From assembly GCA_963751515.1 (NCBI GenBank), contig CAVVUR010000008.1, positions 140,281 through 204,280 on the forward strand: 64,000 nt of DNA, given 5' to 3'. The DNA comes from an uncultured delta proteobacterium (lineage in GTDB: Bacteria; Desulfobacterota; WTBG01). Under the pieces are notes generated by a model. That model had not been told where the DNA came from. It did no database searches and saw only the letters and a list, made by a program, of their open reading frames with translations. Below are positions 3,099 to 26,470 of the stretch, one piece after another (positions within the stretch are counted from its first letter, which is position 1; each line of letters opens with the position of its first letter). Position numbers and translations under genes: made by a program.

Positions 3099-4319
3099 AT
3101 GAAGAAGGTTGGTCGTAAATCTGTTCATGTACCGCAGCCCGAGTGCGGCTGTTCAGATTATGCCCCGCCGGCAATACATCATAATAATCCGGCATGTGCA
3201 AACAGCGTGTCGAAGACTGTAATCCTTGAACCTGATGTTGCCGGGGCATGCCCGGATGACAGATCTGTTAATGATGCGCTGCGCGGTCTGCTACAGCAAT
3301 TCGGATACGGATTACAGCATGTTCCGCCTCCTATCATGCTGCATTACCTCATGAGAGGCTACTGGATATCCCAGGCGATTTATGTGGCGGCGCAGCTTCG
3401 CATTGCCGACCACCTTTCCCATGGACCGAAAAGCGCTGATGAGCTGGCACAGGACGCGGACGTTCACCCGGGAGCCCTTTACCGTCTTTTGCGTACCCTG
3501 GCGAGCGTCGGCATCTTTACCGAGGTCGAGCCCCTGCGCTTCGGGCTCACACCAATGGCAGAGCTCTTGCGGACAGGCAATGCCGGATCGGTGAACGCAC
3601 TGGCCCTGTGGAACATGGTGGACTGGAACGCCTGGGGACAGGTCCTGCACAGCATCAAGACAGGAAAGACCGCGTTTCAGCACGTGCATGGGGAGGAACC
3701 CTTCACCTACTTTGAGCACAATCCCGAGATTGGCGCCGTATTCAACAAAGCCATGACCGGGTATGCAACGTTGAGCAGTATGGCAGCAGTGGAGGCTTAC
3801 GACTTCACCCGGTTTACTGCGGTTGTAGATATCGGCGGGGGACACGGGGCGCTGATGGCTGCGATCCTGCGCTGCAGCCCGGCTACCCGCGGCATCCTCT
3901 TTGATATGCCGAACGTCATCGCAGCGTCACGCAAGATTTTGGAAGACGCCGGGCTTTCGCACCGCTGTGATTGCATTGCCGGGGATTTTTTCACGTCGGT
4001 TCCGCCCGGCGGCGACGCATACATCCTCTCATCGATCATTCATGACTGGGACGCTGAACGCAGCCTGGTTATCCTCAGGAACTGCCGCCGCGCCATGGAG
4101 GTGAACGCGACGCTCCTGCTGGTGGAGGCGGTCATTCCTCCCGGCAACGCACCCTCGTTCAGCAAGTGGCTCGACCTGGAAATGCTGGTCTGTTTCGGGG
4201 GATGGGAACGAACCGAAGCGGAATATCGGGAGCTTCTGGAACAGGCAGGATTCAGACTGACCCGCATCGTGCCGACCCGCACTGCCTCGAACATCATCGA
4301 GGCCGTACCTGTCCCATAA
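3099..4319 (+). CDS. class I SAM-dependent O-methyltransferase (COMT/ASMT-like) with Cys-rich N-terminal extension
   Basis: SAM motif I 'VVDIGGGHGALM', dimerisation-domain-like region 'MLHYLMRGYWISQAIYVAAQLRIADHL'; extra ~75 aa N-terminus with 4 Cys. Confidence 0.8.
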   Translation: MKKVGRKSVHVPQPECGCSDYAPPAIHHNNPACANSVSKTVILEPDVAGACPDDRSVNDALRGLLQQFGYGLQHVPPPIMLHYLMRGYWISQAIYVAAQLRIADHLSHGPKSADELAQDADVHPGALYRLLRTLASVGIFTEVEPLRFGLTPMAELLRTGNAGSVNALALWNMVDWNAWGQVLHSIKTGKTAFQHVHGEEPFTYFEHNPEIGAVFNKAMTGYATLSSMAAVEAYDFTRFTAVVDIGGGHGALMAAILRCSPATRGILFDMPNVIAASRKILEDAGLSHRCDCIAGDFFTSVPPGGDAYILSSIIHDWDAERSLVILRNCRRAMEVNATLLLVEAVIPPGNAPSFSKWLDLEMLVCFGGWERTEAEYRELLEQAGFRLTRIVPTRTASNIIEAVPVP

Positions 4320-11576: not shown

Positions 11577-11695
11577 AAAGCTTTTGAGCGCTTAAATTAC
11601 GCGTGATTCCATTGTTCATTCTCTTTCACGTGGGGATAATAAAATAAAGCCGGCAAATAATCAATACAAGAATCGGCCTGCCTCCGGCTCGGACC

Positions 11696-11724
11696 TTGAC
11701 ACCCCCAAGGCAGTCAAGTATAAT
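11696..11724 (+). promoter_or_regulatory. consensus sigma70-type promoter TTGACA-17 bp-TATAAT upstream of lipoprotein gene 11823
   Basis: TTGACAcccccaaggcagtcaagTATAAT; near-identical over ~35 bp to the promoter at 2970. Confidence 0.55.
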
Positions 11725-11822
11725 TTCGCCAATAAACACTGTTTCTTATTCGCGGCGCAGTTGTCTCCGTCGAAACAGAATGCATACCGCTTACCACACA
11801 CATATGAGCAACAGAGGTTCAT

Positions 11823-12737
11823 ATGCCAATCAATAAAGCAAGCTTTTCTTCTTCCGCCTTCTGTTCCTGGCTCTTTTCGGCATTCATGCTTGTGATGTTC
11901 TCCTGTGCACAGCACCGTGAAGCTGAAATTGTGCCGGCAGCGCAGCCGGCGCCTCAGACCGAGATTGAGCGTCAGCTTGAGCAGGCGCGCTCCGACCTCT
12001 CCGTCAGCCAGGCCACCGAGAGGCGAATCACCTCCGAACTGAAGGCCCTGAAGGAGTCAGGAAAGGCGACTCCCGAAATGGTCAAGGATTATGAGATCTA
12101 CCTCAGCCGCGTGCAGTCCATGGTGGCTGAAAAGAAAAAAATCGCGGAGGAGATGGAAAAGGCGTACGCCAGGCACCAGGAGATGGAAAAAGCAGGCAAT
12201 GATTCAAAATCAGCCATACCAGCAGGCGCCCCTCCCGCGGCAGCGGCGCCGGGGCAAGAGGCCGGCGAACTCGGTACCCTGGACCGGGAACTCAGCGCAT
12301 CACTCTCTGAATTTGACCAGATGCTGCTGAAAGAAATGGATGAGATCCGCTCGAAATCTGAAAGCAGGATGAGTACCCTGGCACAGGAAGCCGCTTCGGC
12401 AGCACAAAGAATCGGGGAACAGGGCGAAGAAGCAGGCGGAACATCCGGGGAGCCCGCTTCATCTGAAGGGGGCGAAAAAGGCGGTCAGAAGGGAAGCGAA
12501 GGAGAAAGCGGCGGGAGCTATGAAAACGTGCCGACCACTGATGGGCCGGTCGCAGGGGGATCATCGGCAGGCGGTTCAGCTTCAGGGCAACAGGCGAAGC
12601 GGCCGTCCGGAAGCGACCAGGATGACGACATCGTGGCCCGCCAGCTCCGTGAAGCCGCGGAAAAAGAGACTGATCCGGAGCTCAAAAAAAAGCTCTGGAA
12701 GGAATACGAAGATTACAAGAAATCCACTCGCCAGTAA
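11823..12737 (+). CDS. acidic coiled-coil lipoprotein with Gly/Ser/Glu-rich low-complexity C-terminus
   Basis: Lipobox 'VMFSC'; heptad-like Glu/Lys-rich region; C-terminal 'GGTSGEPASSEGGEKGGQKGSEGESGGS'. Confidence 0.5.
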   Translation: MPINKASFSSSAFCSWLFSAFMLVMFSCAQHREAEIVPAAQPAPQTEIERQLEQARSDLSVSQATERRITSELKALKESGKATPEMVKDYEIYLSRVQSMVAEKKKIAEEMEKAYARHQEMEKAGNDSKSAIPAGAPPAAAAPGQEAGELGTLDRELSASLSEFDQMLLKEMDEIRSKSESRMSTLAQEAASAAQRIGEQGEEAGGTSGEPASSEGGEKGGQKGSEGESGGSYENVPTTDGPVAGGSSAGGSASGQQAKRPSGSDQDDDIVARQLREAAEKETDPELKKKLWKEYEDYKKSTRQ

Positions 12738-12821
12738 CACAATTCAGGGCGTATTTATAAACTGCGATTGCTTATAAATACGATAGCAAGCACCCTTCAC
12801 GTTTTCACCATAATCACAACC

Positions 12822-14024
12822 ATGCGCATTCATCATTGTTTAATCTGCATCTGCCTCTGTTCCATTGCCGCCTGCTCGACTCTCGACGGGGCGCGCCAGA
12901 CCGCACAAACCAAAATGGTGCAGGCGAAGCAGACCATCCCCGAATCCGAGTTGCTGGACGTGGATATCGCCATCTTTACGAGTGACGAGATCACCGAAAA
13001 AAGAGCCCGAAAAGAAGGCACCAATCCCGAGGTGAGAAAGGCTGAGAACCATTTTATTCCCTACCACCTGAAAAACACCCTGGAGGGGAGCGGTTACTGG
13101 GGCATGGTCCGGGTCACCCCGGTGATATCCGATGCGGCGGAAGTCATGGTGCGGGGTGAGATACTTGAATCGAACGGCGAGAACCTTGCCGTCAAGGTGA
13201 CCGTCAGCGACGCCACCGGCAGGGTGTGGCAGGAGAAGGAGTACGGGGCCTCGGCCACCGGCAGCGACTACCTGGGCACCACCCCCGGAGAAAAGGACGC
13301 GTTTCAGGGTCTCTACAACGCCATCTCCAATGACATGTCCCGCTTTCTTCAGGAGTTGCGCCCCGATGAGATACAGACGCTGCGCACCGTTTCAAACCTC
13401 CGCTTCGCGGGTGATTTCGCACCCCATGCCTTCGGGGACTATCTGCAGGAAAACAATGGCCGGTTTACCCTAAAGCGGCTTCCGGCCGACAATGATACCA
13501 TGATGGCCCGCATCCTGCAGATTCGCGAACGTCAATACATGTTTGAGGACGTCATCAACGAGCATTACGAAGGTTTCTACAATGAAATGTGGTCACCCTA
13601 CGAAGGCTGGCGCTCCTCAAACCTGACAGAGCGCCTTGCCCTGGAAAAGCAGCGACGCTCCGCCCTCCTCCGGGAGGCCGCGGGCGCGCTGCTGATAGCG
13701 CTGGCCATCCTGGGCGAAGTGGGCGATGTGCATGATTCCGGCGCCCTGACCGCAACGATGGTTATCATCGGCGGCCAGGTATTTTTAAGCGGCGTCAATA
13801 TCTCCAAGCAGGCCCAAATGCATTATGAAACGCTGGCAGAGCTGGGTGAATCATTCGGAAGCGAAATGAAGCCGGTGGTGATGGAATTTGAAGGAAAGAA
13901 GTATGAGCTGACTGGATCGGCGGAACAGCAATACAAGCGCTGGCGGGAGCTCTTGCGGGAAATATACTATGCCGAGACGGGGTTCCCAGCAGGAGGCGAA
14001 TCAATTGAGGTACAACCACAGTAA
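12822..14024 (+). CDS. hypothetical lipoprotein
   Basis: Probable start MRIHHCLICICLCSIAACS (lipobox IAAC); stop overlaps start of next gene (translational coupling). Confidence 0.5.
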   Translation: MRIHHCLICICLCSIAACSTLDGARQTAQTKMVQAKQTIPESELLDVDIAIFTSDEITEKRARKEGTNPEVRKAENHFIPYHLKNTLEGSGYWGMVRVTPVISDAAEVMVRGEILESNGENLAVKVTVSDATGRVWQEKEYGASATGSDYLGTTPGEKDAFQGLYNAISNDMSRFLQELRPDEIQTLRTVSNLRFAGDFAPHAFGDYLQENNGRFTLKRLPADNDTMMARILQIRERQYMFEDVINEHYEGFYNEMWSPYEGWRSSNLTERLALEKQRRSALLREAAGALLIALAILGEVGDVHDSGALTATMVIIGGQVFLSGVNISKQAQMHYETLAELGESFGSEMKPVVMEFEGKKYELTGSAEQQYKRWRELLREIYYAETGFPAGGESIEVQPQ

Positions 14025-15601
14025 TGGGCAGATCTTGTCTTCCACCGGAAAAACACATGCACGACCAAACGGGCACCACACCTACAGACCCGCGTGACAA
14101 AATCATAACCCCGCTCAAGGTGACCGCGAGAGAAGAAGGGGCCGGTCACGCTGACGGCAGGAAACAATCATTCCGGTATTACACCACGCTGGTTGGGGCT
14201 CTGGTAATCCTCACTGCGGGAGGTCTCTGGCTGTTCAGCTACCTGTCAAGGAACCCCCTGCCACCTGAAGCAGCGCGAAATCAAAAGCAGGCGTCGGAAG
14301 TGACTCCTGAAGCGGTGCCGTCAATCGTTCCTGTCACAACACAACCTCCGGCAGCGCAGGCGCAGTCGGCTGCGCAGAACAAAAAGGAAGAGGCGGAACA
14401 AAAGCTCGCTGATTTTTTGAAAGCAAAAAAAGAGCTTGATGAGAAGGGGGTCGCAGAGTGGGGCGGAGAGGGCTATCAGCGGCTGCTGCAGCTCGCTCAG
14501 GCTGCCGATGCCGCGCTCATGCGGGAAGAGTTTGCAGCCGCCGCAGAGGGCTACACTCAGGCCTCCGCTGTCGCGCTCAGCCTGAAAGCAGGTATGGTGG
14601 ATGCGCTCAGTGACATCCTTGAGCAAGGCCGGCGCGCGCTCAAGGAAGGCGACGGCAAGAAGGCTGAACGGCTCTTCAGACTCGCCCTGATGATAGAACC
14701 TGCGCACCCTGTGGCCCTGCGCAATCTCGATCGCGCCAAAAACTGCGGGAAGGTCTTGGAGCTGCTGCAATCCGCCGCGCGGCATGAAGAAGGCAACAGC
14801 CTTTCTTCCGCCCGTGATGACTACCAGGAGGCCGTTTGGCTGGACCCTGAATCGGAAGAGGCCCGGGCCGGCCTGGCACGCGTGACCGGCCTGATAGCTT
14901 CCCGGCAATTTGATGAATTGATGTCAGGGGGAATAACCGCGCTGCACGCGCACGACTACGGCCGCGCCCGGCAGCTGCTCCTCAAGGCGCGATCGATTAA
15001 GCCCGATTCCCCCGAGGTCAATGACGCTCTCGCTCAGGCGGATTCGGCCCTGAAAAGGGCCCGCATCGCTGGGCTGCAAAATGAGGCGGCTGCTGCCGAG
15101 CGCTCCGAGGACTGGAATGAGGCGCTTGCAGCCTATCAAAGCGCTCTTTCCCTGGATGGCTCCATTCAGTTTGCCCTGCAGGGCAAAGAACGGGCGCTCA
15201 AGCGTAAGGAAATGGAAGAAAGCATCAAAAGCTACCTGGCCCAGCCAGGCCAGCTGGAAACCGACGGATCCCTGAACAGGGCAAGGGCGTTGCTTGGTGA
15301 GGCGCGGCAGATGGAGCCGAGAGGTCCCCGCTTGAGCAGTCTTATACAGGAACTGGATGAGCTTGTTGCCGCCGCCCGCACCACTGTCCCGGTGATTATC
15401 GAATCGGACGGGGAAACCGAAGTGGCCGTTTACAAGGTGGGCAAGCTGGGCCGCTTCCAAAGCAAGGAACTGGCCCTCCGCCCGGGAACCTATACGGTCA
15501 CGGGGGCCCGATCCGGATACAAGGATGTGCGCCGCAGCCTCTCGGTCAAGGCCGGCAGCGCGTCGCTGCGCATAACCGTCAGCTGCACTGAAAAAATATG
15601 A
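14024..15601 (+). CDS. membrane-anchored TPR-repeat protein with C-terminal PEGA-like beta domain
   Basis: Single TM 'YYTTLVGALVILTAGGLWLFSYL'; repeated Ala/Leu-rich TPR-like helices; C-term 'LALRPGTYTVTGARSGYKDVRRSLSVKAG'; overlaps next gene by 4 nt. Confidence 0.6.
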   Translation: MGRSCLPPEKHMHDQTGTTPTDPRDKIITPLKVTAREEGAGHADGRKQSFRYYTTLVGALVILTAGGLWLFSYLSRNPLPPEAARNQKQASEVTPEAVPSIVPVTTQPPAAQAQSAAQNKKEEAEQKLADFLKAKKELDEKGVAEWGGEGYQRLLQLAQAADAALMREEFAAAAEGYTQASAVALSLKAGMVDALSDILEQGRRALKEGDGKKAERLFRLALMIEPAHPVALRNLDRAKNCGKVLELLQSAARHEEGNSLSSARDDYQEAVWLDPESEEARAGLARVTGLIASRQFDELMSGGITALHAHDYGRARQLLLKARSIKPDSPEVNDALAQADSALKRARIAGLQNEAAAAERSEDWNEALAAYQSALSLDGSIQFALQGKERALKRKEMEESIKSYLAQPGQLETDGSLNRARALLGEARQMEPRGPRLSSLIQELDELVAAARTTVPVIIESDGETEVAVYKVGKLGRFQSKELALRPGTYTVTGARSGYKDVRRSLSVKAGSASLRITVSCTEKI

Positions 15602-17697
15602 AAATGTCTGCAGAGCCTCCGGCGCAACAAATCATTGAACCCATACCATTCAAACCGGTCGACTCCCGTCGTCCGCACGGTGGCCTATCCCGCGGACGAT
15701 GGCTGTTCATTGCGCTTCTTGCATGCTTCCTTTTCTTTTTCCTCTACGCGATCCTGTTTGTCTTTACCGCCCGTCAGGTATCAATACAAATACATCCCGA
15801 CCCCGATCGGGTCTCCGTCAAGGGGTCGCTCTTCAGCATCCACATTGGCAGCAGCTACCTCCTGCGCCCCGGAAACTATCGTGTGCACGCCTTTAAATCC
15901 GGGCACAAAGCGCTGGAGCTGCCGTTGCTTGTCACCGGGGAGTCAAACCAGAAACTGGTCGCCGTCATGGAAAAGCTTCCCGGCCGCTTAACCGTAACCG
16001 CTTATCCGCAGGAGCGGCCCGCTGAAACCGTTGCAGGGGCCGAGGTCTCTATCGACGGTCAAAAGGCCGGTGTCACTCCCCTTGCCGTCATCGAGGTCAA
16101 GGCCGGTCCCAGGGAAGTGCTCATCAGGGCAGACCAGTACCAGGACTTCAAAACCTCCCTGGAGGTAGAAGGCATGGGCACCTTGCAGACACTAAACGCG
16201 GCGCTGGTATCAGCATCGGGCGGTATCACCGTTGATTCCATTCCATCAGGCGCGGACGTTGCCATCGATGGAACAGTACGGGGAAAAACCCCCTTGCAGC
16301 TCAAGCTCGGCGCAGGAACCTATGGCTTGGAGATACGCGCCCCCCATTACAAAAGCTGGCAGGACCGCCTTGAGTTAAAGGAAGGTCAGCAGGAGGTGCT
16401 GGATACGGTCACGCTGCTTCCTGCCGACGGCACCATACAAGTGCGGACGAACCCTCCGGGGGCCATTGTGACAGTTGATAAAACCTTCTTCGGACGCACG
16501 CCCGCAAGCATTCCGCTTTCGCCGGAGGCTGATCACGCGCTTCACATCTCCAAGGCGGGCTACGAAAATATTGAAGAAAAGGTGCGTGTGGCCAGCGAAG
16601 AGGTCCGGGAACTCAGCCTGGAGCTGAAACCCGCCACCGGGACCATCCACTTCAGCGTAACACCTGAGAACGCAGAGCTTTACATTAATGCCATGCCTCA
16701 AGGCCCTGTGCCTCCGAGCCTGATCCTCCCATCCGCGCCACAGAAGCTCAAAATAGTAAAAGAAGGTTACGAGACGTATCAAACAGAGATAACGCCGCAG
16801 CCCGGCGTTGCAAAGGAAATAAACGTAACCCTCCTCAAAAAAATCCCGGCCCCGGCGGCAGCGGGTTCAGCAGCGAGCATCAGAGCTGCGAACGGATACC
16901 CCCTGCTCCTGGTCCGGCTTTCCTCCTTTACCATGGGTTCTTCGCGGCAGGAACAGGGACGCAGATCCAACGAAACGCTCCGAGAAATCGTTTTCACCCG
17001 GCCATTTTACATGGGCCTCAAGGAAGTGAGCAACGCTGAATTCCGGGCATTTCTCCCCGGCCATGATTCCGGCTCTCTTCAAGACCACAGCCTCAATCAG
17101 GACGCGCAGCCGGTTGTCAATATTACCTGGGAGGAGGCCGCCTCATACTGCAACTGGTTAAGCGGGAAGGAAAAGCTCCCGCCGGTGTATAGCCTCCGGG
17201 GAGGCAGGTTGATTGCCGGGGGACCCCTGGCAAGCGGCTACCGGCTGCCGACAGAGGCGGAATGGGAATACTGTGCACGCGTGACCGGAAAGACGGCTGA
17301 CTCACTCTATCCCTGGGGCAGCGGCTTTCCGCCCCCGACACGAACCGTTAACATTGCCGACCTCTCCGCCCGGGATCTGCTTCCCGGGTACTTTGACAAC
17401 TATGAGGACGGCTATCCTGTTTCAGCTCCGCCCGCCACCTTCGCTGCCAACGCACTCGGCATCTACGATCTCGGCGGCAATGTTGCCGAGTGGTGCCATG
17501 ACTATTATTCAATATACTCTTACAACCCCGGCCAACGCTACCAGGACCCCGCGGGCCTTCAGGAAGGAACGCATCACCTTATAAGAGGGTCAAGCTTCAG
17601 GCACGCGAGCATCAGCGCCCTGCGATCCGCTTTCCGGGATTACAGCAGTGAAAAAAGACCGGACGTGGGATTTCGCGTCTGCCGGTACGCCGATTAA
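15598..17697 (+). CDS. membrane protein with multiple PEGA domains and C-terminal FGE-sulfatase (SUMF1/formylglycine-generating enzyme-like) domain
   Basis: PEGA motifs e.g. 'SIPSGADVAIDGTVRGKTPLQLKLGAGTYGLEI'; FGE signature 'GYRLPTEAEWEYCAR', 'NVAEWCHDYY'; N-terminal TM. Confidence 0.75.
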   Translation: MKMSAEPPAQQIIEPIPFKPVDSRRPHGGLSRGRWLFIALLACFLFFFLYAILFVFTARQVSIQIHPDPDRVSVKGSLFSIHIGSSYLLRPGNYRVHAFKSGHKALELPLLVTGESNQKLVAVMEKLPGRLTVTAYPQERPAETVAGAEVSIDGQKAGVTPLAVIEVKAGPREVLIRADQYQDFKTSLEVEGMGTLQTLNAALVSASGGITVDSIPSGADVAIDGTVRGKTPLQLKLGAGTYGLEIRAPHYKSWQDRLELKEGQQEVLDTVTLLPADGTIQVRTNPPGAIVTVDKTFFGRTPASIPLSPEADHALHISKAGYENIEEKVRVASEEVRELSLELKPATGTIHFSVTPENAELYINAMPQGPVPPSLILPSAPQKLKIVKEGYETYQTEITPQPGVAKEINVTLLKKIPAPAAAGSAASIRAANGYPLLLVRLSSFTMGSSRQEQGRRSNETLREIVFTRPFYMGLKEVSNAEFRAFLPGHDSGSLQDHSLNQDAQPVVNITWEEAASYCNWLSGKEKLPPVYSLRGGRLIAGGPLASGYRLPTEAEWEYCARVTGKTADSLYPWGSGFPPPTRTVNIADLSARDLLPGYFDNYEDGYPVSAPPATFAANALGIYDLGGNVAEWCHDYYSIYSYNPGQRYQDPAGLQEGTHHLIRGSSFRHASISALRSAFRDYSSEKRPDVGFRVCRYAD

Positions 17698-17718
17698 TCC
17701 TTTAGAAAAAAAATCAAT

Positions 17719-18063
17719 ATGTGCTATACCATAACCATACTGGGTCTGCTCTGCTGCACGTGCCTTCCTGCACCATCATTCAGGGGCGCAAGCGATACGG
17801 TCAGGTGGCAACACATCGGATGGGAAAGCTGTTTCATCCTCACTGACGGCGCTCACCATCCAGGCTTGCTTGCCCAGCGGAGTCAAACCACCATTCCTGA
17901 CAGAAAAGAGCCGGCACCTGAAAAGCAGGATGCCAAGCCCCAAGCGGCAGAACAGAACAAAGAAGTGTCTCAGCAGAAAGATAAAACACCAGCTCCTAAA
18001 GACTTTGTTCCCTCTGAAAAGATTGATGCTGATAAGGCGGTGGATTTTCCGGCAGATATTTAA
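17719..18063 (+). CDS. small Lys/Pro/Gln-rich hypothetical protein (possibly not expressed)
   Basis: ORF only; low-complexity C-terminus; no RBS evaluated. Confidence 0.2.
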   Translation: MCYTITILGLLCCTCLPAPSFRGASDTVRWQHIGWESCFILTDGAHHPGLLAQRSQTTIPDRKEPAPEKQDAKPQAAEQNKEVSQQKDKTPAPKDFVPSEKIDADKAVDFPADI

Positions 18064-18075
18064 GAGGAGTCCGAC

Positions 18076-18879
18076 ATGAAAAAATCGTTTTCTTTATCCT
18101 TTGAGTTCCTGTACCAGTTGTTCTCGCTTATCATCAGCGTTATCCTGGTGCATGCAGTCTACGTGGGGATCATCTGGCCCGCCTCGGATGCATTTCTGGC
18201 CGAACAGGCTGCCCTGATGAAACAGGACCCATCGCACGTAGCCAAGCAGTCCGTCTACGTGGTATTGGTTGACTATGAACAGGAGACAGAAATCATCCTC
18301 ATGTTCTGGGCATTGGCCATCATGATCTACAAAGGCATTGTAATCACCAGAAACCGCACCCTGCTGCAGGAGGACCTGATACCCATGGCGGAGGGAATGA
18401 AAATATTGCCTGAGGATGTCCACGATATCTCCCGGCAGATACAGTCATTGCCGGCGGCGCAGAAGGGTGCCCTGCTTTCCCGGGTTTTGCTTGCCGCATT
18501 GCAGCGTTTCAGTTCAACCCGCAACATTCAGGATGTATCCAATGCCACCAATGCCTATTGTGCTTCTGAAGGAGACCGCCTGGACTCCGAGCTTTCCATG
18601 ATCAGATACGTCCTGTGGGCCATTCCCTCCATCGGTTTTCTGGGCACGGTGCGGGGCATCAGCCTGGCGCTGGGCTATGCCCACCGGGCGGTCGAAGGGG
18701 ACATCTTTGATGTCACCAAAAGCCTGGGGACGGCATTCAACTCAACCCTGATCGCCCTGCTGATAAGTCTCGTGCTGATGTTTTTCCTGCACCAGCTTCA
18801 GCTGCTTCAGGAGCGTTACGTGCTGGATACTGAAACATACTGCGAAGAGAAGCTCATCAGTCGTCTCCACGCCCGTTAG
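18076..18879 (+). CDS. MotA/TolQ/ExbB-family proton-channel protein (stator A-type subunit)
   Basis: Family signature across last two TM helices 'IPSIGFLGTVRGISLALGYAHRAVEGDIFDVTKSLGTAFNSTLIALLISLVLMFF'; 4 predicted TM; AGGAG RBS 7 nt upstream. Confidence 0.75.
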   Translation: MKKSFSLSFEFLYQLFSLIISVILVHAVYVGIIWPASDAFLAEQAALMKQDPSHVAKQSVYVVLVDYEQETEIILMFWALAIMIYKGIVITRNRTLLQEDLIPMAEGMKILPEDVHDISRQIQSLPAAQKGALLSRVLLAALQRFSSTRNIQDVSNATNAYCASEGDRLDSELSMIRYVLWAIPSIGFLGTVRGISLALGYAHRAVEGDIFDVTKSLGTAFNSTLIALLISLVLMFFLHQLQLLQERYVLDTETYCEEKLISRLHAR

Positions 18880-18890
18880 GAGTATAGATC

Positions 18891-20321
18891 ATGACACTGC
18901 TGGGAATCGAGTTGAGTGACGCCGGCATAATGGCAGCTGCAGGAGATCCGCCACTGCTCCTCGACACAGATGGGGCAGAAAAATCAAGCCCCGGTTTTGC
19001 CCTCAGCACCAACGATGGACTCATCATGGGACGAGTTGCCTTAAGCAGGTTTCGTCTCAATCCCCGCTCATACAACAATCGTTTCTGGGACGAGCTGAGC
19101 ACTGAACCGATTAAACAGCCGGGGTTTGAAGGGAAAAGCTATGCGGAGCTGGCATATCGTCACCTGTCAAAGCTATGGGACATCCTCAGGAATAAAGCAG
19201 ACGAGGTTGTCATCGCTGCCCCCGGTTTTTATACCCCGCATCAGCTGGGCATTCTCTTGGGGATTGCGGATGAATTATCCATACCCGTCAAAGGATTTGC
19301 CTCGATCGCACTGGCAGGATCGTCGGCCCCCCATCCTGAGCACCCCCTCCTGCACTTGGACATTCACCTGCACCGGATTGAAATAACCTTTCTCGAGCAG
19401 GGTGACCGCCTTATCCAGAAAGAAGTGAAGACTATTCCGGGTAGAGGTTTCAACTATCTGTACACGGAATGGGTGAAGATGGTTGCAGACGAGTTTGTGC
19501 GAACAACACGTTTTGACCCCTTTGATCAGGCCGCATACGAACAGGAGTTGTACAACCGCCTTCCCCCGGCAATTGAAAGCCTGCAGCCGCATTCATCCAC
19601 GACATTTACCTTACAAGCCGGGGCACACAGCCACCGCGCAACCTTAACCCATGACCTTTTTGCTCAAAAAACCGAAGCCGTGCTTTCAGAGGTGCGCCGG
19701 ATCATCGAGGATATGATGCTCAGTGCAGGCTTCCATGAAAAAGCCCCCGTTCTTTCGATCACTCAACGCATCCGTCACCTGCCCGGCTTCAAAGAATCCA
19801 TATGCAAAATACCCGGTCTCACCATCGTTGAACTTGCGCCGGGATCGGGTGCCCTGGGAGTACTCAAGCTGCGGGACCGATTCACCAGCCAGCACGAAAG
19901 ACAGGGTATCACACTTTTAAACAGCCGCCCCTGGCCGCCCAAATCAGCCGGCGGCCATGCCCCCACCCCACCTGTCCGGGCCATCATGCAGCCCAATCAT
20001 ATCCTGCACGAGGATTGTGCCTACCCCATTACCGCTGAGCCTCTCATCATTGGTCAGAGTAACCATGACGGTGAGACCACCCTGTGCATCAGCAGCAACC
20101 CTTCAGATTTCTCTCAACGATACTGTACCATTCAGCGTGAAAGGGATGATATCGTACTCGTCAATGAGTGTTCGGCCGGCACCCTTGTGAATGAACAAAA
20201 GGTTTTAAAAACATGTGTTCTCAGCCTGGGCCAGAAAATCAGAGTGGGGACACAATCAGATGAGCTCAAACTGATCGCTTGTGTGGGCACTGATGAAAAA
20301 GAGAGACGTAACCGTATTTAG
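18891..20321 (+). CDS. Hsp70/actin-fold ATPase domain fused to C-terminal degenerate FHA domain
   Basis: DnaK-like phosphate-1 'LLGIELSDAGIMAA' and 'VVIAAPGFYTPHQLGILLGIADELSIPVKGFASIALAGS'; C-term FHA-like 'IIGQSNHDGETTLCISSNPSDFSQRYCTIQRERDDIVLVNECSAGTLVNEQKV...LSLGQKIRVG' (Arg->Gln, His->Tyr at canonical positions). Confidence 0.6.
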   Translation: MTLLGIELSDAGIMAAAGDPPLLLDTDGAEKSSPGFALSTNDGLIMGRVALSRFRLNPRSYNNRFWDELSTEPIKQPGFEGKSYAELAYRHLSKLWDILRNKADEVVIAAPGFYTPHQLGILLGIADELSIPVKGFASIALAGSSAPHPEHPLLHLDIHLHRIEITFLEQGDRLIQKEVKTIPGRGFNYLYTEWVKMVADEFVRTTRFDPFDQAAYEQELYNRLPPAIESLQPHSSTTFTLQAGAHSHRATLTHDLFAQKTEAVLSEVRRIIEDMMLSAGFHEKAPVLSITQRIRHLPGFKESICKIPGLTIVELAPGSGALGVLKLRDRFTSQHERQGITLLNSRPWPPKSAGGHAPTPPVRAIMQPNHILHEDCAYPITAEPLIIGQSNHDGETTLCISSNPSDFSQRYCTIQRERDDIVLVNECSAGTLVNEQKVLKTCVLSLGQKIRVGTQSDELKLIACVGTDEKERRNRI

Positions 20322-21384
20322 CATCTCCTTCATTGACTGCATCACCTGCGGCCTGGGCGCGATGCTCCTGCTGTTTGTGATTGTGAATGCCAGGAGCGTG
20401 GCCAGCAGGAGCGAGATCACCTCGGACATCCGGGGAGAAGTTGACCGGATGGAAAAAGAGGTGCTCCAGGGGAAAAAGGACCTGGTGGAAGCCCGCAATA
20501 CAATGGAGCAGACCCTGGAGGAACTGGTGAAAACGCAGGGGCTCTCGCGCAGGGTTATAGCAACCATTACGGAAAAAAAGACCGAGCTTTCCAGTTATGA
20601 CAACGATACCCTCGCCTCCAGGGAACACATCAACCGCTTGAAGGCGGATCTCAAGGCGAAGGAGGAGGCGCTCAAGCGGCTCGAAGGCGGGAGCACCTCC
20701 CGCGACGACCACGGCTCGAAGGTGAGGCAATTCACCGGAGAGGGTGACCGCCAGTACCTGACCGGCCTCAAGATGGGAGGCCAGCGGGTCTTCATCCTTG
20801 TCGATGCCTCGGCCAGCATGCTTGATGATACCGTCGTGGGCATCATCCGCAAAAGGAATATGGCCGACGCGGACAAGCGAAAGGCAGACAAGTGGCGGCA
20901 TGCGGTGAAGTCCATCGACTGGCTGACCACCCAGCTACCCCTCACCGGCTCCTACCAGGTTTACAGCTTCAATGAGACCGCTGCCCCTGTCCTCGAGGGG
21001 ACCGCCGGAAAGTGGCTGGACGGCAACAATTCCCTGCAGCTTAATGAGATAGTCAACCGTTTGCACCTGATGGTGCCGCAGAACGGAACCAGCCTCATCA
21101 ATGCCATTGCCGCCATGCACGCCATGTCACCGCCGCCCGACAACATCTTCCTGCTCACCGACGGACTGCCCACCATGGGAAGAGAAAAGCCCTGGGGCAA
21201 AAAGGTATCCGGGGAAAAGCGCCTGGCCCTGTTTAACGAAGCAACGCGCCAGCTTCCGCCCCAGGTTCCGGTAAATGCAATTTTATATCACATGGAAGGG
21301 GATCCTGCCGCCGCCAGCGCCTTCTGGCGACTGGCCATGGCAACCGGCGGCTCCTTTTTTTCTCCGTCCCGGGACTGGCCCTAA
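20293..21384 (+). CDS. ExbD/TolR-like N-terminal TM helix (conserved Asp) + coiled coil + vWA domain protein, paralog 1
   Basis: TM 'VTVFSISFIDCITCGLGAMLLLFVIV' (cf. TolR 'EINIVPLLDVLLVLLLIFM'); long Glu/Lys heptad region; vWA MIDAS 'RVFILVDASASM', 'NGTSLINAI', 'IFLLTDGLP'; start overlaps upstream gene. Confidence 0.7.
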   Translation: MKKRDVTVFSISFIDCITCGLGAMLLLFVIVNARSVASRSEITSDIRGEVDRMEKEVLQGKKDLVEARNTMEQTLEELVKTQGLSRRVIATITEKKTELSSYDNDTLASREHINRLKADLKAKEEALKRLEGGSTSRDDHGSKVRQFTGEGDRQYLTGLKMGGQRVFILVDASASMLDDTVVGIIRKRNMADADKRKADKWRHAVKSIDWLTTQLPLTGSYQVYSFNETAAPVLEGTAGKWLDGNNSLQLNEIVNRLHLMVPQNGTSLINAIAAMHAMSPPPDNIFLLTDGLPTMGREKPWGKKVSGEKRLALFNEATRQLPPQVPVNAILYHMEGDPAAASAFWRLAMATGGSFFSPSRDWP

Positions 21385-21420
21385 CCGGTTGTTGAAAAAG
21401 GAGTGGCGCATGAATAGCAT

Positions 21421-21457
21421 GTGACTCAAAGGGGGAGGGGTTTTTTAGCCACAACAA
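21421..21457. repeat. partial (left-end only) copy of MITE-like repeat
   Basis: GTGACTCAAAGGGGGAGGGGTTTTTTAGCCACAACAA followed by AGAACGGC block; no right inverted end. Confidence 0.45.
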
Positions 21458-21511
21458 AATTATACGGAGCCTGGAGAACGGCTCTTTTTCTCACAGGTGT
21501 TCATGATGAAT

Positions 21512-21563
21512 GGTAGGAGCGGCTTTAAGCCGCGATCATATCGCACCTGAAGGTGCTCCTACC
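21512..21563. repeat. REP-like imperfect palindrome (GGTAGGAGCGGCTTTAAGCCGC...GCTCCTACC)
   Basis: Arms GGTAGGAGC/GCTCCTACC; related perfect palindrome at 46332. Confidence 0.5.
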
Positions 21564-21601
21564 GACCCATGCATTTTGCTTGCTGCACATTTAAAAAACC
21601 C

Positions 21602-22603
21602 ATGAGAACGCGAAGAAGAGAACTCGAGATATTCAGCCTCTCATTTCTGGACTGCATCTGCTGCGGCTTCGGCGCCATTATCCTGCTCTTTGTCCTGTCG
21701 AAATTCGGCCAGCCCATCAAGATAGAGGAAGTGAAGCAGGATTTGACGGCGCTTCTGGCAAAGCGCGAAGAAGAGCTGTTTGTTATCCGGGGTGAAGTAC
21801 AGGTGCTCAACCGTGAGCTGGAAGGAAAAAAGGAGCAGCTCTCGCGGGAGAAGGAGAGCCTGGCGCGCCTCCAGGGCGACCTCTCAAAATTACAGGGGGA
21901 GTTTGCCGCATCACAGCAAAATGCCGCGGTACAAAACACCATTGAGGGCAAGCTCGCTCAGGCCCAGCAGGAGCTTACCGAGGAGATGAAGCGTCTGCAG
22001 AAGGACCGGCCGGTGGTGCGCGACGGCTCGGTGGGAGGCATCCCCGTCGACAGCGAGTACATTATTTTCATCATCGACACCTCGGGGAGCATGCAGCGCA
22101 ATGCCTGGCAGCTGCTGCAGAAAAAGCTCCGCGAAACGCTGGATGTCTACCCCCGGGTCAAGGGCATCCAGGTCATGAACGACGAAGGCACTTATTTATT
22201 TCCCGAGTACCGCGGCAGCTGGATCCCCGACACCGCGGGCCGCCGAAAGGTGATCATCAACACCTTAAGCGGCTGGACACCCTTCAGCAACAGCAGCCCC
22301 GTGGAAGGGATCAACGAAGCCATCTCCACCTATTACGATCCCGGCAGGAAGATCAGCCTCTATGTCTTCGGCGATGAGTTCAGCGGATATGACATGCAGG
22401 GGGCAATCGATACCGTGGACCGGTTAAATAAAGCGGACAGGACTGGCGCGCGGCGGGTGAGGATCCACGCGGTGGGATTTCCCACGGTGCTCAAAGATAT
22501 CCGCGATGAGATGAATACAGGGGTTCGCTTTGCCGCCCTGATGCGCGTCCTCTGCCAGCGAAACGGGGGCACGTTTGTCGGGCTCAACACCACCAGGCCT
22601 TAG
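21602..22603 (+). CDS. ExbD/TolR-like N-terminal TM helix (conserved Asp) + coiled coil + vWA domain protein, paralog 2
   Basis: TM 'LEIFSLSFLDCICCGFGAIILLFVLS'; coiled coil; vWA 'YIIFIIDTSGSM', 'LYVFGDEFSG'; ORF in track begins at 21569, the Met at 21602 is preferred by homology to paralog 1. Confidence 0.7.
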   Translation: MRTRRRELEIFSLSFLDCICCGFGAIILLFVLSKFGQPIKIEEVKQDLTALLAKREEELFVIRGEVQVLNRELEGKKEQLSREKESLARLQGDLSKLQGEFAASQQNAAVQNTIEGKLAQAQQELTEEMKRLQKDRPVVRDGSVGGIPVDSEYIIFIIDTSGSMQRNAWQLLQKKLRETLDVYPRVKGIQVMNDEGTYLFPEYRGSWIPDTAGRRKVIINTLSGWTPFSNSSPVEGINEAISTYYDPGRKISLYVFGDEFSGYDMQGAIDTVDRLNKADRTGARRVRIHAVGFPTVLKDIRDEMNTGVRFAALMRVLCQRNGGTFVGLNTTRP

Positions 22604-22754: not shown

Positions 22755-23186
22755 TCAGTACCGCCACTTGCCTCTGGAAAATGAGAAGATCTCGGTTACC
22801 GGGCATTCCTGTTGAAGCTTGAACTGCCCGTTTACCGCTTCTTCATAGGTCTTGGCCTTACTGACGAAGGTCTGCTCCTGATAATTGAGGATCCCGACAT
22901 AGGGAGTCTCTTTGCTTGCAGTCTTTTTGGTTCTTCCGCTATAGGTTCTGCTGTAGCCGGTATATTCAGCAACGAAGCAATCATCAACCTTCTTGCAGGC
23001 AATATTGATCTTGCTTTTTTCTTCCCGGCTATACAGATGCTCCATCCACTGCTGATTGAAAAGCTGAAAGCTCGCCTCCACGTCCTGGCTTTCATCTATC
23101 GCATACAGCGCAGGATGTGGTACCAGCACGCCGAGGCACAGGGCCACCGCATAAACGGCAACAAGGTATCTCATGGCCGCACTCAT
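22755..23186 (-). CDS. secreted hypothetical protein
   Basis: Signal peptide 'MRYLVAVYAVALCLGVLV'; no recognisable domain. Confidence 0.4.
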   Translation of the reverse strand: MSAAMRYLVAVYAVALCLGVLVPHPALYAIDESQDVEASFQLFNQQWMEHLYSREEKSKINIACKKVDDCFVAEYTGYSRTYSGRTKKTASKETPYVGILNYQEQTFVSKAKTYEEAVNGQFKLQQECPVTEIFSFSRGKWRY

Positions 23187-23845
23187 TCGCCGTTCATGAC
23201 CTTGAACTCAACCCTGCGGTTCATTTCCCGGCCCTGACGGGTTTCATTGTCGGCAACGGGGTTCGCTTCACCATACCCCATCGTGCTCAGTTTTTCAGCG
23301 GCAATGCCCTTCTCCACCATATAGGCCTTCACTGCTTCCGCCCGCTTTTCAGAGAGACGCAGGTTGTAATCCTCGGCCCCGATGCTGCAGGTATAACCCT
23401 CAACCGCAACACTTTTCTCGGGATGCTTTGCTAAAGCGGCAATCCCCTCATCAAGGATTGGATAATATTGATCCTTAATGACCGCCTTGTCGAAGTCGAA
23501 CTGTATGCCATTGAGAACGATCTTTTCAACCACCTTGGGCGGCGGTGGCGGTTCTTCTGCTACTGGCTCAGGTACCGTCGTCGTTGTCGTCGGCGGCGGT
23601 TCCTCTTTGCACACCACTGCACCGATTATTCCTCCGACGACTAAACCAGCTGCCGCACCGACAGCGGCCCCCTCTGCGGTATCTTCATCACCCTGGTGAC
23701 CAACAACAGCACCAGCACCGGCTCCTATAGCTGCACCGGCTACAGCACCTGCTGCTATACATTTTGCCCGCTTGGACGCCGTCGAGCAACCAGCGGCCAG
23801 CACAACTACCAGAATTAAGACCATCGCCTTCGCAAATACTTTCAT
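23183..23845 (-). CDS. OmpA-family peptidoglycan-binding lipoprotein with glycine-zipper and Pro/Thr linker
   Basis: Lipobox 'LAAGCS'; 'AGAVAGAAIGAGAGAVVG' Gly-zipper; OmpA_C-like 'NGIQFDFDKAVIKDQYYPILDE...NRRVEFKV'. Confidence 0.8.
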   Translation of the reverse strand: MKVFAKAMVLILVVVLAAGCSTASKRAKCIAAGAVAGAAIGAGAGAVVGHQGDEDTAEGAAVGAAAGLVVGGIIGAVVCKEEPPPTTTTTVPEPVAEEPPPPPKVVEKIVLNGIQFDFDKAVIKDQYYPILDEGIAALAKHPEKSVAVEGYTCSIGAEDYNLRLSEKRAEAVKAYMVEKGIAAEKLSTMGYGEANPVADNETRQGREMNRRVEFKVMNGE

Positions 23846-24585: not shown

Positions 24586-25473
24586 TTACGGAACTATTTC
24601 ATACCCATACCGCTTCATTTCTTCACCGCACAAAGTAATAAACGTATCTTTATCCGACCGGCTCCATTCCGGCCATTTGGGAAAAAGAAATGTCCTGGTA
24701 ATGTTCTTGGGCTTTCCGACAAATTCAAGCCACTCCTGTTCTACATTGAACTTCATATCCGTTATCGTAAGCAGCATGGATTCAAATGCGGCGTAATTGC
24801 TGATCATGTCCTCAAATCGTATGGTTGCATCAGCATGTTCCCGCATGTACGAGTTTTCATAGGTCCACAGCCAGCAGAGCTTTTCGAACCGTGTAAAGCG
24901 CGACCACCGATGAGGATCAATGTCTTTACGGGGAGGGACAAAATCGTAATAGTCCTTATCCTCCGGGGTATACGCTCTCCTGCTCATGACCGACCGCACC
25001 CCATCTCTTCCGTCACGGATGACATGAATAATTTTCATGGCCGGGAGATGCTTCTTAAACGCCGCTATGTGTCGGCGCAAATGGCTGTTGACTTCACCAT
25101 ACATGCTAGCCCTGTTCGCAACACACCGCAGGGCCATCTCCCCAAGGCGAAAATCAAGGAGATACTTCTCCGCTTCGGCGGGATTCATAACTGCTTTCTT
25201 GTGGAAGGGATTTTCCCTTGGAACCGGCTCATGCATGACGCACAAACCGTCAACACGCCTGTTTAAAAAATGTGCCAGCCAGGCGGTTCCTGTTCTTCCG
25301 GTGCTGGTGATCAAAAAAAGCTTTCGCTGCTTCAGAATGGCAAGCGCTTCACCCGTTCCGGGAATTATCCAGCGAAGGGCGGCGCGATACGCAAATCCCT
25401 TATCAATGCCGATTTTACCGGCCTTGCGGCTCACCTGGTAAATAAAGCGTGTCCAATCAAATGTGCTGTTCAT
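24586..25473 (-). CDS. sulfotransferase-family protein
   Basis: PAPS 5'-phosphosulfate-binding-like 'FLITSTGRTGTAWLAHF'; 295 aa. Confidence 0.65.
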   Translation of the reverse strand: MNSTFDWTRFIYQVSRKAGKIGIDKGFAYRAALRWIIPGTGEALAILKQRKLFLITSTGRTGTAWLAHFLNRRVDGLCVMHEPVPRENPFHKKAVMNPAEAEKYLLDFRLGEMALRCVANRASMYGEVNSHLRRHIAAFKKHLPAMKIIHVIRDGRDGVRSVMSRRAYTPEDKDYYDFVPPRKDIDPHRWSRFTRFEKLCWLWTYENSYMREHADATIRFEDMISNYAAFESMLLTITDMKFNVEQEWLEFVGKPKNITRTFLFPKWPEWSRSDKDTFITLCGEEMKRYGYEIVP

Positions 25474-25506
25474 ACGTGCGCTCCCATACCCAGGCGACCT
25501 CTAAAA

Positions 25507-25575
25507 TTGTTGTGGCTAAAAAGCCCCTCCCCCTTGAGCCACATATAAATAAAGAAATCAATGACGCACTACACT
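25507..25575. repeat. half copy of MITE-like element (inner plus outer inverted-repeat module), reverse orientation
   Basis: TTGTTGTGGCTAAAAAGCCCCTCCCCCTTGAGCCACATATAAATAAAGAAATCAATGACGCACTACACT matches the reverse complement of 37128-37198. Confidence 0.5.
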
Positions 25576-26427
25576 GAATGATGTCTGAGAAATAACTGGC
25601 CAAAACAAGGGCAGGTGTCAATTTGACAGGGCTGCGCTTCCCTGTCAAAGGTGATGCCCTTGGAGATATGACCCAAAACGGTTTTGTCACCGACACATCT
25701 CGTAACCCTGCCGTCGGGCGATATGCGGATAAATAATCTGCCGGCATCGCATTTAATGCCCCTGGATTTTACCGGGATTTCCTCAAGGAAACAGGGGTTG
25801 TATTCTGAAAGCAGCTTTTTTTCCTCCCCGGCATAAGCCTGGGGGTACCGTTTCCCCTGGAACTCCCCCTTGAAAGGCTTGGGCATGATTGGACCCCTCT
25901 TGATCGGAAGTAGTCATAGTCCTTCATGAATCTGCTGATCAGGCTCGGCTGTAAAACATAGCTCACCCGGCAATTAAATCCCTTTTCCTGCAACAACAAA
26001 ATATTGCCTATAAAATCATCGACCTGATTTCCTCTTTCGCGCTCCGCGATATGCGTCCGATATGTAAAGGAGTCTACTGGTCTGGGTATGATTTTTTTGC
26101 AAACTCCGCCACCCTTCTGTTGATGCTTAAATTTGTATCTACATAAATGCAAAAGTGCTCCGTAAGCGTTTCGCACAATTGGACAAACCGGGGGTACGTG
26201 AAAGGTTCTCCGCCGGTTAAGCCGATCGTCCACTTTTTCCCCTCCTCGTTTTTCAACAGCTTAATTATCTTGCTGCTTCCCTCCAGGGGGTCCGCGGGAA
26301 GGCCGGTAAGCCTGTGCATATTTTTTTGCCCATGGTGCTGAAACGTCGCGCAATCCCGTGGTCGGAGTTTGCCCTTCCAATCTTGCAATACGGGCAGTGA
26401 AAATTGGATTCCCTGGTAAAATACCAC
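25569..26427 (-). pseudogene. radical SAM / SPASM-domain protein split over three reading frames
   Basis: Radical SAM 'GLTGGEPF' in ORF 26074-26427, middle and SPASM-like Cys-rich C-terminus ('CFLEEIP...CVGDK...CQIDTCPC') in two other frames. Confidence 0.45.
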
Positions 26428-26470
26428 AAGGCCAGGGCCTGTGTATCTTCGCTTGAACTCTGAGCAAATT

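Follow-up and report, generated by a model that had tools for sequence, protein, structure and literature searches.

What connects a set of genes for putative envelope proteins to the stator-like genes that follow them? This question is raised by a 64,000-nucleotide stretch of DNA from an uncultured delta proteobacterium (Desulfobacterota; GenBank assembly GCA_963751515.1, contig CAVVUR010000008.1, positions 140,281 to 204,280 of the forward strand), which we call the window and number from its first letter. An initial annotation of positions 11,696 to 17,697, made from the letters alone, described a consensus promoter followed by genes for two lipoproteins, a TPR protein anchored by a transmembrane (TM) segment and a TM protein with PEGA domains and a C-terminal FGE/SUMF1 domain, and associated these with the MotA-like and vWA proteins encoded immediately downstream. 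Here, we show that the four genes (g1–g4) belong to a conserved cluster that continues with a small secreted or signal-anchored protein (g5), a MotA/TolQ/ExbB-family channel subunit (g6), an accessory Hsp70-like protein (g7) and a pair of vWA proteins (g8 and g9). By analogy with known motors, we propose with moderate confidence that g1–g9 encode one proton-driven, envelope-spanning machine, in which g1–g5 would be the structural partners.

The upstream genes are conserved with the putative motor genes

With g7, a mid-cluster gene, as a neutral probe, we retrieved 80 loci from contigs representing one genome per species, onto which all window proteins were mapped by tblastn. Forty of these loci, the genome set, have at least 8.5 kb of DNA upstream of the probe. 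Within this set g3 and g4 are present in 39 of 40 loci, g2 in 38 and g1 in 37, with constant order and strand, and two of the three exceptions contain assembly gaps of 100 Ns. Downstream of the probe, 57 of 58 loci have g8 and g9. Desulfobacterales make up most of the hosts, which also include Brocadiaceae and Kuenenia (Planctomycetota, anammox bacteria), Nitrospinia (Nitrospinota), Thermodesulfovibrionia (Nitrospirota), Acidobacteriota and Gammaproteobacteria (Pseudomonadota). In a Brocadiaceae genome, g1–g4 accompany g6, g8 and g9.

An exhaustive HMMER search from g9 extended the family to 1653 related clusters at 50% identity, and the FLDxxxC helix and IDTSGSM motif persist in g9 relatives that are 27–41% identical to one another. 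With such distant relatives as seeds, a metagenome scan yielded 80 further loci, in which vWA-2 is only 33–58% identical, and 30 of these have enough upstream DNA for comparison. g4 is found in all 30, g2 and g3 in 29 and g1 in 27, and the adjacency of g4 to the motor genes is kept even at 26–28% g4 identity. The distant locus L094 illustrates this arrangement, with Pfam matches to TPR, then four PEGA copies plus FGE, MotA_ExbB and vWA, flanked by a major facilitator superfamily transporter gene and ssb. The genes on either side of the cluster are not conserved, the commonest flanking family occurring in 13 loci. Thus, the order and strand of g1–g4 stay constant while both flanks change, which argues that they form one unit with g6, g8 and g9. 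The connection that the initial annotation drew between the upstream genes and the stator-like module is strongly supported, since g4 precedes the MotA/TolQ-like gene and both vWA genes in 39/40 genome loci and 30/30 metagenome loci. Absence of the upstream genes from orthologous clusters was the refuting outcome named in that annotation, and the hypothesis survived this comparison.

The upstream genes proved more constant than g7, a member of the stator module itself. Among 44 distant loci, 18 lack g7, with the motA-like gene directly adjoining the first vWA gene (L082–L161; for example L094, 6582–8432), and we rejected g7 as a core component on this ground. Members of the cluster carry the database names 'hypothetical protein' or 'FHA domain-containing protein' throughout; those of the distant relatives are all named 'hypothetical protein' and all come from uncultured organisms.

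A chance juxtaposition of two unrelated operons would be the simplest alternative. One locus, L049, has the motor genes beside unrelated housekeeping genes and without g1–g5, and the co-transcription of the two halves is deduced from their spacing. However, the two halves stay adjacent, in the same order and on the same strand, in about 70 loci from several phyla, down to the lowest g4 identities given above, and we regard chance as an extremely improbable explanation. At L049 (1–9100) the motA-like gene, g7, g8 and g9 adjoin ChaN-like, NUDIX, ProC and GGDEF genes; either the cluster has been split there or the contig of this metagenome-assembled genome is chimeric.

Gene arrangement and operon structure

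Table 1 Positions of the promoter and of the nine genes in the window.
Feature	Position	Strand	Basis
Sigma-70 consensus promoter, TTGACA-17-TATAAT	11696..11724	+	12/12 score, direct sequence reading
g1, secreted acidic coiled-coil protein, 304 residues	11823..12737	+	Open reading frame; present in 37/40 and 27/30 loci
g2, lipoprotein, ~400 residues	12822..14024 (reading frame opens at TTG 12768)	+	Conserved lipobox Cys
g3, TM-TPR protein	14024..15601	+	Pfam TPR; 39/40 and 29/30 loci
g4, TM-PEGA/FGE-fold protein	15598..17697	+	Pfam; 39/40 and 30/30 loci
g5, small secreted or signal-anchored protein, 114 residues	17719..18063	+	Alignment; outside the interval initially annotated
g6, MotA/TolQ/ExbB-family proton-channel subunit, 267 residues	18076..18879	+	PF01618
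g7, cytoplasmic Hsp70 nucleotide-binding domain-like + FHA protein, 476 residues, accessory	18891..20321	+	FHA match, fold model
g8, TM-Asp helix + coiled coil + vWA	20281..21384 (GTG 20281 or ATG 20293)	+	Motifs, VWA_2
g9, paralogue of g8	21569..22603 (probable start ATG 21602)	+	hhalign, invariant columns

The four same-strand genes of the initial annotation were recovered, as were its two overlaps, where the sequence reads TAATG at 14022–14026 (g2–g3) and ATGA at 15598–15601 (g3–g4). The conserved unit, g1-g2-g3-g4-g5-g6-(g7)-g8-g9, spans 11823–22603, or about 10.9 kb. Its remaining junctions are 84 nt between g1 and g2, 21 nt between g4 and g5, 12 nt between g5 and g6 and 11 nt between g6 and g7, followed by an overlap of 29–41 nt between g7 and g8 and a spacer of about 185–217 nt between g8 and g9. 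A scan of the window found no terminator-like site between g4 and g6, which, together with the 21- and 12-nt gaps that separate g4, g5 and g6, favors a single transcript. From the sequence, g1–g9 probably form a single operon transcribed from the promoter at 11696–11724.

The only terminator-like site inside the block is a hairpin at 21466–21485 in the g8–g9 spacer (21385–21601). The same spacer contains a promoter-like site scoring 9/12 at 21392–21420, and it may serve as an internal attenuation or re-initiation point. Antisense open reading frames of up to 211 residues also occur within the operon, for example at 20266–20901 on the minus strand. We take these as by-products of G+C-rich coding frames, since it is the plus-strand genes that have conserved homologues.

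The promoter of the initial annotation was confirmed; it reads cc-TTGACA-cccccaaggcagtcaag-TATAAT, with the −35 hexamer at 11696–11701, a 17-nt spacer and the −10 hexamer at 11719–11724, and lies 99 nt upstream of the ATG of g1. It is the only site with a 12/12 score between 9 and 25 kb in our promoter scan. Sites with at most one mismatch to TTGACA-17-TATAAT number six in the whole window, against 0.13 expected from dinucleotide shuffles, and two of the six, at 2970 and 11696, are exact. In the closest relative (L002) both hexamers are kept between diverged flanks. A promoter scoring at least 10/12 was found within 300 nt upstream of g1 in 17 of 33 orthologous loci, compared to 2 of 99 coding controls. 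In the orthologues this promoter typically takes the form (C)TTGACAC-17-TAxxxT, with a recurrent (C)TTGACAC −35 element, and precedes g1 by about 100 nt, which indicates that g1 is the first gene of the unit.

Further features surround this promoter. A 27-nt A/T-rich block at 11651–11678 (CCGGCAAATAATCAATACAAGAATCGG) is identical in L002 between diverged flanks; it occupies the position of an UP element or activator site and overlaps a promoter-like site of the divergent iorA gene. Within the 99-nt leader, a hairpin at 11801–11825 has the g1 start codon in its paired stem and an AGAGG Shine-Dalgarno sequence in its loop, and is of modest stability (z = −2.0). An Rfam search at E ≤ 1 over 11.4–23 kb gave no match, hence no known riboswitch or leader. 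The second perfect promoter, at 2970–2998 on the plus strand, lies upstream of an O-methyltransferase gene (3099–4319) and has a spacer similar to that of the operon promoter (TTGACAC.CCCA.GGCAGT); a one-mismatch promoter at 2946–2918 on the minus strand faces the opposite way. The promoters at 2970 and 11696 may share a promoter style or an operator.

The predicted motor proteins

g6 matches the MotA/TolQ/ExbB family (PF01618) with an E-value of 1.9e-12 and 47.5 bits, above the cut-off of 22.9. Residues P184, G190-T191-V192 and S223-T224 are invariant among 76 sequences, and we take T191 and T224, in the last two TM helices, to be the equivalents of the TolQ pore residues T145 and T178.

g8 and g9 are paralogues (hhalign 99.6%, E 7.5e-24), each consisting of a basic N-terminus, a single TolR/ExbD-like TM helix, a coiled coil of about 100 residues and a vWA domain. 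The TM helix contains an Asp (D19 in g8, D28 in g9) that is invariant even in relatives at 27–41% identity. The residues of the metal ion-dependent adhesion site (MIDAS) are also invariant, comprising D175-x-S177-x-S179, T270 and D294 in g8 and D170-x-S172-x-S174 and D269 in g9. g9 is the most conserved protein of the cluster, at 58–73% identity across phyla. Among orthologues, VWA_2 matches were obtained for 19 of 20 g8 sequences (best E 1e-6) and 8 of 21 g9 sequences, with g8 of L094 reaching 37.2 bits, above the cut-off. No ExbD, TolR, MotB or OmpA-like peptidoglycan-binding domain was found in the cluster proteins by Pfam and NCBIfam scans.

The PEGA/FGE-fold protein

We then examined g4, for which the initial annotation of a TM protein with PEGA domains and a C-terminal FGE/SUMF1 domain was confirmed by Pfam. 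PEGA (PF08308) is matched in four copies above the gathering score (E 2.7e-49, 165 bits), as it is in L094, and the protein has room for about five β-sandwiches, four of which are scored by Pfam. Residues 443–695 form a full-length FGE-sulfatase domain (E 6.1e-39, 134.7 bits against 23.3). At the N-terminus, a cytoplasmic tail of about 35 residues with a conserved I[EK]P[VI][SP]F[RH] motif precedes a very hydrophobic TM helix (~37–55) ending in WFVFTARQV, and there is no lipobox.

The initial annotation had left catalytic competence to an inspection of the FGE active-site cysteines. For comparison we used what we take to be the sequence of human SUMF1. The alignment stops at RGSSF/KGGSY, just before the Cys336/Cys341 loop, where RGSSF-R-H-ASIS-A-LR in g4 corresponds to GGSYM-C-HRSY-C-YRYR and the catalytic cysteines are replaced by His and Ala. 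None of about 95 g4 orthologues has a catalytic Cys at either position, and the inspection is therefore negative for the whole family. Because the Cys pair is absent, we rejected g4 as a catalytic FGE. Within g4, conservation is highest in the FGE-like domain. On that conservation and the absence of a template repeat, we rejected the idea that a diversity-generating retroelement acts on the FGE fold.

Many relatives, the Brocadiaceae locus among them, have a g4 of about 810–825 residues, extended by an extra N-terminal cytoplasmic domain placed directly before the TM helix. A profile of this domain gave only FHA domains as its top matches in the PDB (E 8e-4 to 0.02), and Pfam detects FHA in 6 of 17 members. 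We observed this FHA-like domain at L001 (6323–6682), L117, L124, L143 and other loci; it is absent from the window protein. The FHA-TM arrangement of these g4 proteins parallels that of the YscD-type proteins of type III secretion systems.

A MotA-like motor that senses envelope perturbation, with the vWA, FHA, PEGA and FGE-fold proteins as sensor or scaffold, could also describe a Zorya-type anti-phage or conflict system. FGS/FGE-fold, PEGA, vWA and FHA domains do recur in vWA-centred conflict systems (Kaur et al. 2020, PMC7159879), g6 has weak ZorA matches (E 5e-4), and the variable flanks and scatter across phyla suggest lateral mobility. However, PADLOC returned only weak generic ZorA and LmuB matches and no family beyond MotA similarity, a result on which we rejected assignment to a known defence system, and Pfam and NCBIfam scans of the cluster found no nuclease, toxin, STAND or MoxR NTPase, or peptidase effector. 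The architecture is fixed and the sequences are very highly conserved, as the cross-phylum identity of g9 demonstrates, and conservation within g4 peaks in the FGE-like domain, which has no retroelement template repeat. The window context is housekeeping, with metabolic and envelope-biogenesis neighbors, and not a defence island, and a tblastn search of g9 against plasmids gave no match. We consider a role in defence unlikely.

The other envelope proteins

g1 has a signal peptide, a mature pI of 4.8, a coiled coil and a low-complexity middle, and ends in an invariant C-terminal helix motif, DDDIVARQLREAAEKETDPELKKKLWKEYEDYKK, that is more than 90% conserved. It has no real Pfam match. The acidic coiled coil of the initial annotation is thus correct; its lipoprotein assignment is weak, as the lipobox MFSC is non-canonical and most orthologues have a plain signal peptide with no Cys. 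In the window, g1 is possibly a lipoprotein.

The second lipoprotein, g2, was confirmed with a corrected start. ATG 12822 is the most likely start codon, giving MRIHH...SIAAC, and the lipobox SIAAC is replaced by LSGC, FTGC or similar sequences in nearly all orthologues, with the Cys more than 90% conserved. None of its 1165 homologues has a Pfam domain and a PDB sequence search gave no match. An AlphaFold model (pLDDT 79.7) contains an N-terminal α/β domain, a helical hairpin of about 75 + 40 residues with a hydrophobic, Gly-rich tip, and a small β unit. The N-terminal domain is similar to that of TolB (Foldseek E 9e-4) and to LptE (E 7e-3).

g3 is the TM-anchored TPR protein that the initial annotation described, with a single TM helix (~56–74) and TPR_11 matched at 30.7 bits against a cut-off of 26.8, other TPR models falling just under their cut-offs. 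A cytoplasmic tail of about 55 residues with a conserved E[IV]I[TA]P[LI] motif precedes the TM helix; the helical/TPR region follows it, and the C-terminus is a PEGA-like β-sandwich with a weak Pfam match only (CarboxypepD_reg, E 0.005). A phospho-Thr site in this tail as a target for FHA domains was not supported, since the Thr is often Ala.

g5 is disordered, with a signal peptide or signal anchor, and is conserved at its C-terminus only, where the alignment is near-invariant (F.PSEKI.AD.AVDFP.DI). In 36 of 40 distant loci, the interval from g4 to the motA-like gene contains an open reading frame whose product has FP.[DN]I at its end, and g5 is 45–65 residues long in the most distant clade.

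The basic N-terminal tails followed by single TM segments suggest that g3 and g4 are N-in, single-pass inner-membrane proteins that face the periplasm. The initial annotation allowed for these proteins to be either a scaffold or a substrate of the vWA proteins, and the second option would make the motor/vWA module a device that exports the PEGA/FGE and TPR proteins or displays them on the cell surface. PEGA domains are known from surface-layer proteins, and the signal peptides of g1 and g5 look cleavable. Yet the long basic tails and strongly hydrophobic helices of g3 and g4, which have no cleavable signal, resemble anchors, the cytoplasmic FHA-like domain found on g4 in many lineages is incompatible with export, and the one-to-one gene stoichiometry is that of subunits. 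Export of cargo is therefore very unlikely, and the TM anchors of g3 and g4 argue for structural partners of the vWA proteins.

The accessory protein g7

g7 contains an FHA domain (Pfam E 5e-4) and an N-terminal domain whose model (pLDDT 82) has the fold of the Hsp70 nucleotide-binding domain (NBD), matching DnaK with a Foldseek E-value of 3e-18 and template modelling scores of 0.70–0.77 against NBD-only chains. E7 and D10 of the first phosphate motif are invariant. In residues 153–166, a conserved D157-I-H-L-H-R takes the place of the phosphate-2 loop, which in Hsp70 is presumably the Gly-rich D-x-G-G-G-T (D-L-G-G-G-T). The replacement suggests a non-chaperone role, and g7 is probably not a conventional ATPase.

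This replacement, the cytoplasmic FHA modules (in g7 or fused to g4) and the conserved tail motifs of g3 and g4 would also be compatible with a trans-envelope signalling device, in which the periplasmic domains sense a ligand, the tails signal to the FHA/Hsp70-like protein and the MotA-like protein is a gated channel. However, the losses of g7 in distant loci leave all envelope parts in place, and no kinase, phosphatase or transcription factor was found in the cluster by Pfam and NCBIfam scans. The invariant Asp/Thr proton path and both MIDAS sites fit an energised mechanical device better, and we judge signalling to be an improbable function.

A model of the proposed machine

The gene content, order, conservation and motifs of the cluster are observed, and from these we infer a 5:2 stoichiometry, physical contacts, a direction of force and a biological output by analogy with the Ton, Tol and Agl-Glt systems. 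We propose that a g6 ring and a g8/g9 heterodimer would form the proton-driven core, in which proton flow turns the ring relative to the dimer. In place of the peptidoglycan-binding domain of TolR, ExbD or MotB, the vWA heads would latch onto a partner, with the MIDAS grip probably acting through an acidic residue of that partner. The g5 C-terminus and the C-terminal helix of g1 are candidates, and the acidic FPxDI end of g5 could be a ligand of the MIDAS site or of the TPR domain. g3 and g4 would take the architectural position of TolA, TonB and GltG, each with a tail or FHA domain, a TM helix, a periplasmic spacer and a globular head, and their long periplasmic parts could cross the periplasm. 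g2, with its TolB-N/LptE-like domain, and g1 would lie on the distal, outer-membrane side. Force would then pass to the g3/g4 scaffold and on to a target in the outer envelope; g1 and g2 on the distal side, the TPR domain and the cysteine-less lectin fold of g4 would make the connection to the outer membrane or wall. Conceivable outputs are outer-membrane tethering, secretion and surface movement.

Several observations weigh against this model. The g3 and g4 TM helices lack the SHLS/His motif that TolA and TonB use for motor binding. PDB sequence searches matched g6, g8 and g9 to no solved motor; g6 had no match and g8 and g9 had only chance coiled-coil matches (E ≥ 0.009). The vWA score of the window g8 is 20.8 bits against a gathering score of 27, and the window g9 has no match on its own. 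The best PDB sequence match of g4 is PorK, a ring protein of the type IX secretion system (T9SS), at an E-value of 3e-18, only marginally better than the matches to catalytic FGEs (best E 7e-16; ~1e-16 to 1e-14), and for GldK (TIGR03525), its best NCBIfam match, the score of 107 bits is far below the cut-off of 350. In favor of the model, g4 diverges in step with g8 and g9 (Spearman rho 0.87–0.89), as closely as g8 does with g9 (0.88), although this is expected for any co-inherited genes and is no proof of contact. Against the model, the g8–g9 spacer is long relative to the orthologue median of 61 nt and holds the terminator-like hairpin, so that g9 may be partly uncoupled, and the L049 motor genes stand apart from g1–g5.

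Genomic neighborhood and significance

The initial annotation also noted an OmpA-type lipoprotein gene at 23183–23845 on the opposite strand. Both the domain (E 4.3e-24) and the strand are correct, and the lipoprotein has glycine-zipper segments. Among the relatives, only the closest three (L002–L004) share the gene, and we therefore rejected it as part of the system. A 143-residue open reading frame at 22755–23186 on the minus strand, with no Pfam match, adjoins the OmpA gene, and both converge on the operon end. Farther downstream, 24586–31452 contains sulfotransferase, GT4 glycosyltransferase and Kdo/WaaP-family kinase genes (envelope/polysaccharide), while genes for an indolepyruvate:ferredoxin oxidoreductase and a PaaK-like ligase lie upstream of the operon.

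Proton-driven 5:2 motors power most known energy-requiring outer-membrane processes in Gram-negative bacteria, and a field has grown from each output of such a motor that came to be understood (Ton, Tol, gliding, T9SS, Zorya). For the TolQ-like/vWA motor, flagged in 2025 as a new class without known partners, the cluster provides a defined and strikingly constant set of eight core genes plus one that is optional, and makes a concrete Tol/GltG-like architecture available as a testable model. Conserved features open to mutation are the TM Asp and the MIDAS of both vWA proteins, the FPxDI end of g5, the motifs in the cytoplasmic tails of g3 and g4, and the FGE fold of g4 with its missing cysteines. 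The carriers include sulfate reducers, anammox bacteria and Nitrospinota nitrite oxidisers, which are environmentally important and poorly tractable, and the system may bear on envelope maintenance in these groups.

Comparison with known systems

A trans-envelope apparatus around a MotA/TolQ motor is a known kind of system, and the core described here has already been predicted in print. A recent paper ('Origin and Evolution of Bacterial Periplasmic Force Transducers', Mol Biol Evol 2025, PMC12204202) predicts TolQ-like/transpore-helix-vWA (TPH-vWA) motors. In its second vWA family, whose function is not known, tolQ-like genes occur with heterologous pairs of transpore-helix vWA proteins that have a proton-binding Asp, an arrangement predicted to form a TolQ-like pentamer with a vWA dimer. 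g6, g8 and g9 share the tolQ-like gene, the absence of tolR/exbD, the heterologous pair of TM-tethered vWA proteins and the Asp helix, an assignment based on gene arrangement and motifs as that paper describes them, with Idiomarina as its exemplar. The paper makes no mention of PEGA, FGE-sulfatase, formylglycine or Hsp70, 'FHA' matches only the word FhaC, and its TPR neighbor belongs to the other, TolA-like vWA family. The universal partners g1–g5 and the optional g7 are therefore additional to its description. Among the papers returned by literature searches on the domain combination, none describes the whole cluster, the g1–g5 partners or the optional Hsp70-like/FHA protein.

We compared the cluster to the better-characterized machines. 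It resembles Tol-Pal in its TolQ-family channel with a TM Asp partner, its N-in proteins that cross the membrane once and reach far into the periplasm, a periplasmic TPR/coiled-coil protein comparable to CpoB, the TolB N-domain-like domain of g2 and its lipoprotein partners. However, Pfam and NCBIfam detect no TolR periplasmic domain, TolA domain III, TolB β-propeller or Pal in the conserved block, and vWA heads stand where Tol-Pal has a peptidoglycan-binding domain.

The Agl-Glt gliding machinery of Myxococcus, with its vWA adhesin CglB, likewise combines a TolQR-type motor with TPR proteins and a MIDAS-containing vWA protein. In GltG, an FHA domain and the adjacent TM helix have been modelled docking on the TolQ-like AglR pentamer (PMC11761067), and g4 of many relatives shares this FHA-before-TM arrangement. 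The vWA domains here are fused to the Asp-bearing helices of the motor, whereas that of CglB is on an outer-membrane lipoprotein, and the cluster has 8–9 genes compared to at least 17, with no TonB-C domain, GltABHK barrels or MglA/MreB-linked parts.

T9SS (PorL/GldL-PorM/GldM, PorK/GldK-PorN) offers another combination of a proton-driven motor, a dimeric periplasmic shaft and a non-catalytic FGE-fold protein. g4 differs from the lipoproteins PorK and GldK in being TM-anchored with PEGA domains, the motor belongs to the MotA/TolQ family and not to GldL/GldM, and Pfam and NCBIfam scans of the nine proteins reported no PorN-type match. With SUMF1 itself, g4 shares the full-length FGE-sulfatase match and differs in the missing catalytic Cys pair. 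Zorya (ZorAB) resembles the cluster in having a MotA-family channel outside flagella with an unusual partner, whereas g6 has only a weak ZorA match (17 bits, E 5e-4) and PADLOC detects no ZorB, ZorC, ZorD or ZorE.

We tentatively suggest, at slightly less than even confidence, that the cluster represents a proton-driven trans-envelope nanomachine of a new class, to be placed alongside the flagellar stator, Ton, Tol-Pal, Agl-Glt, the T9SS PorLM motor and Zorya. On this same tentative footing, the class would be defined by an Asp-bearing dimer with two MIDAS heads, the fixed partner set g1–g5 and an undescribed envelope function, and would have spread laterally among Desulfobacterota, anammox Planctomycetota, Nitrospinota, Acidobacteriota and marine Gammaproteobacteria.

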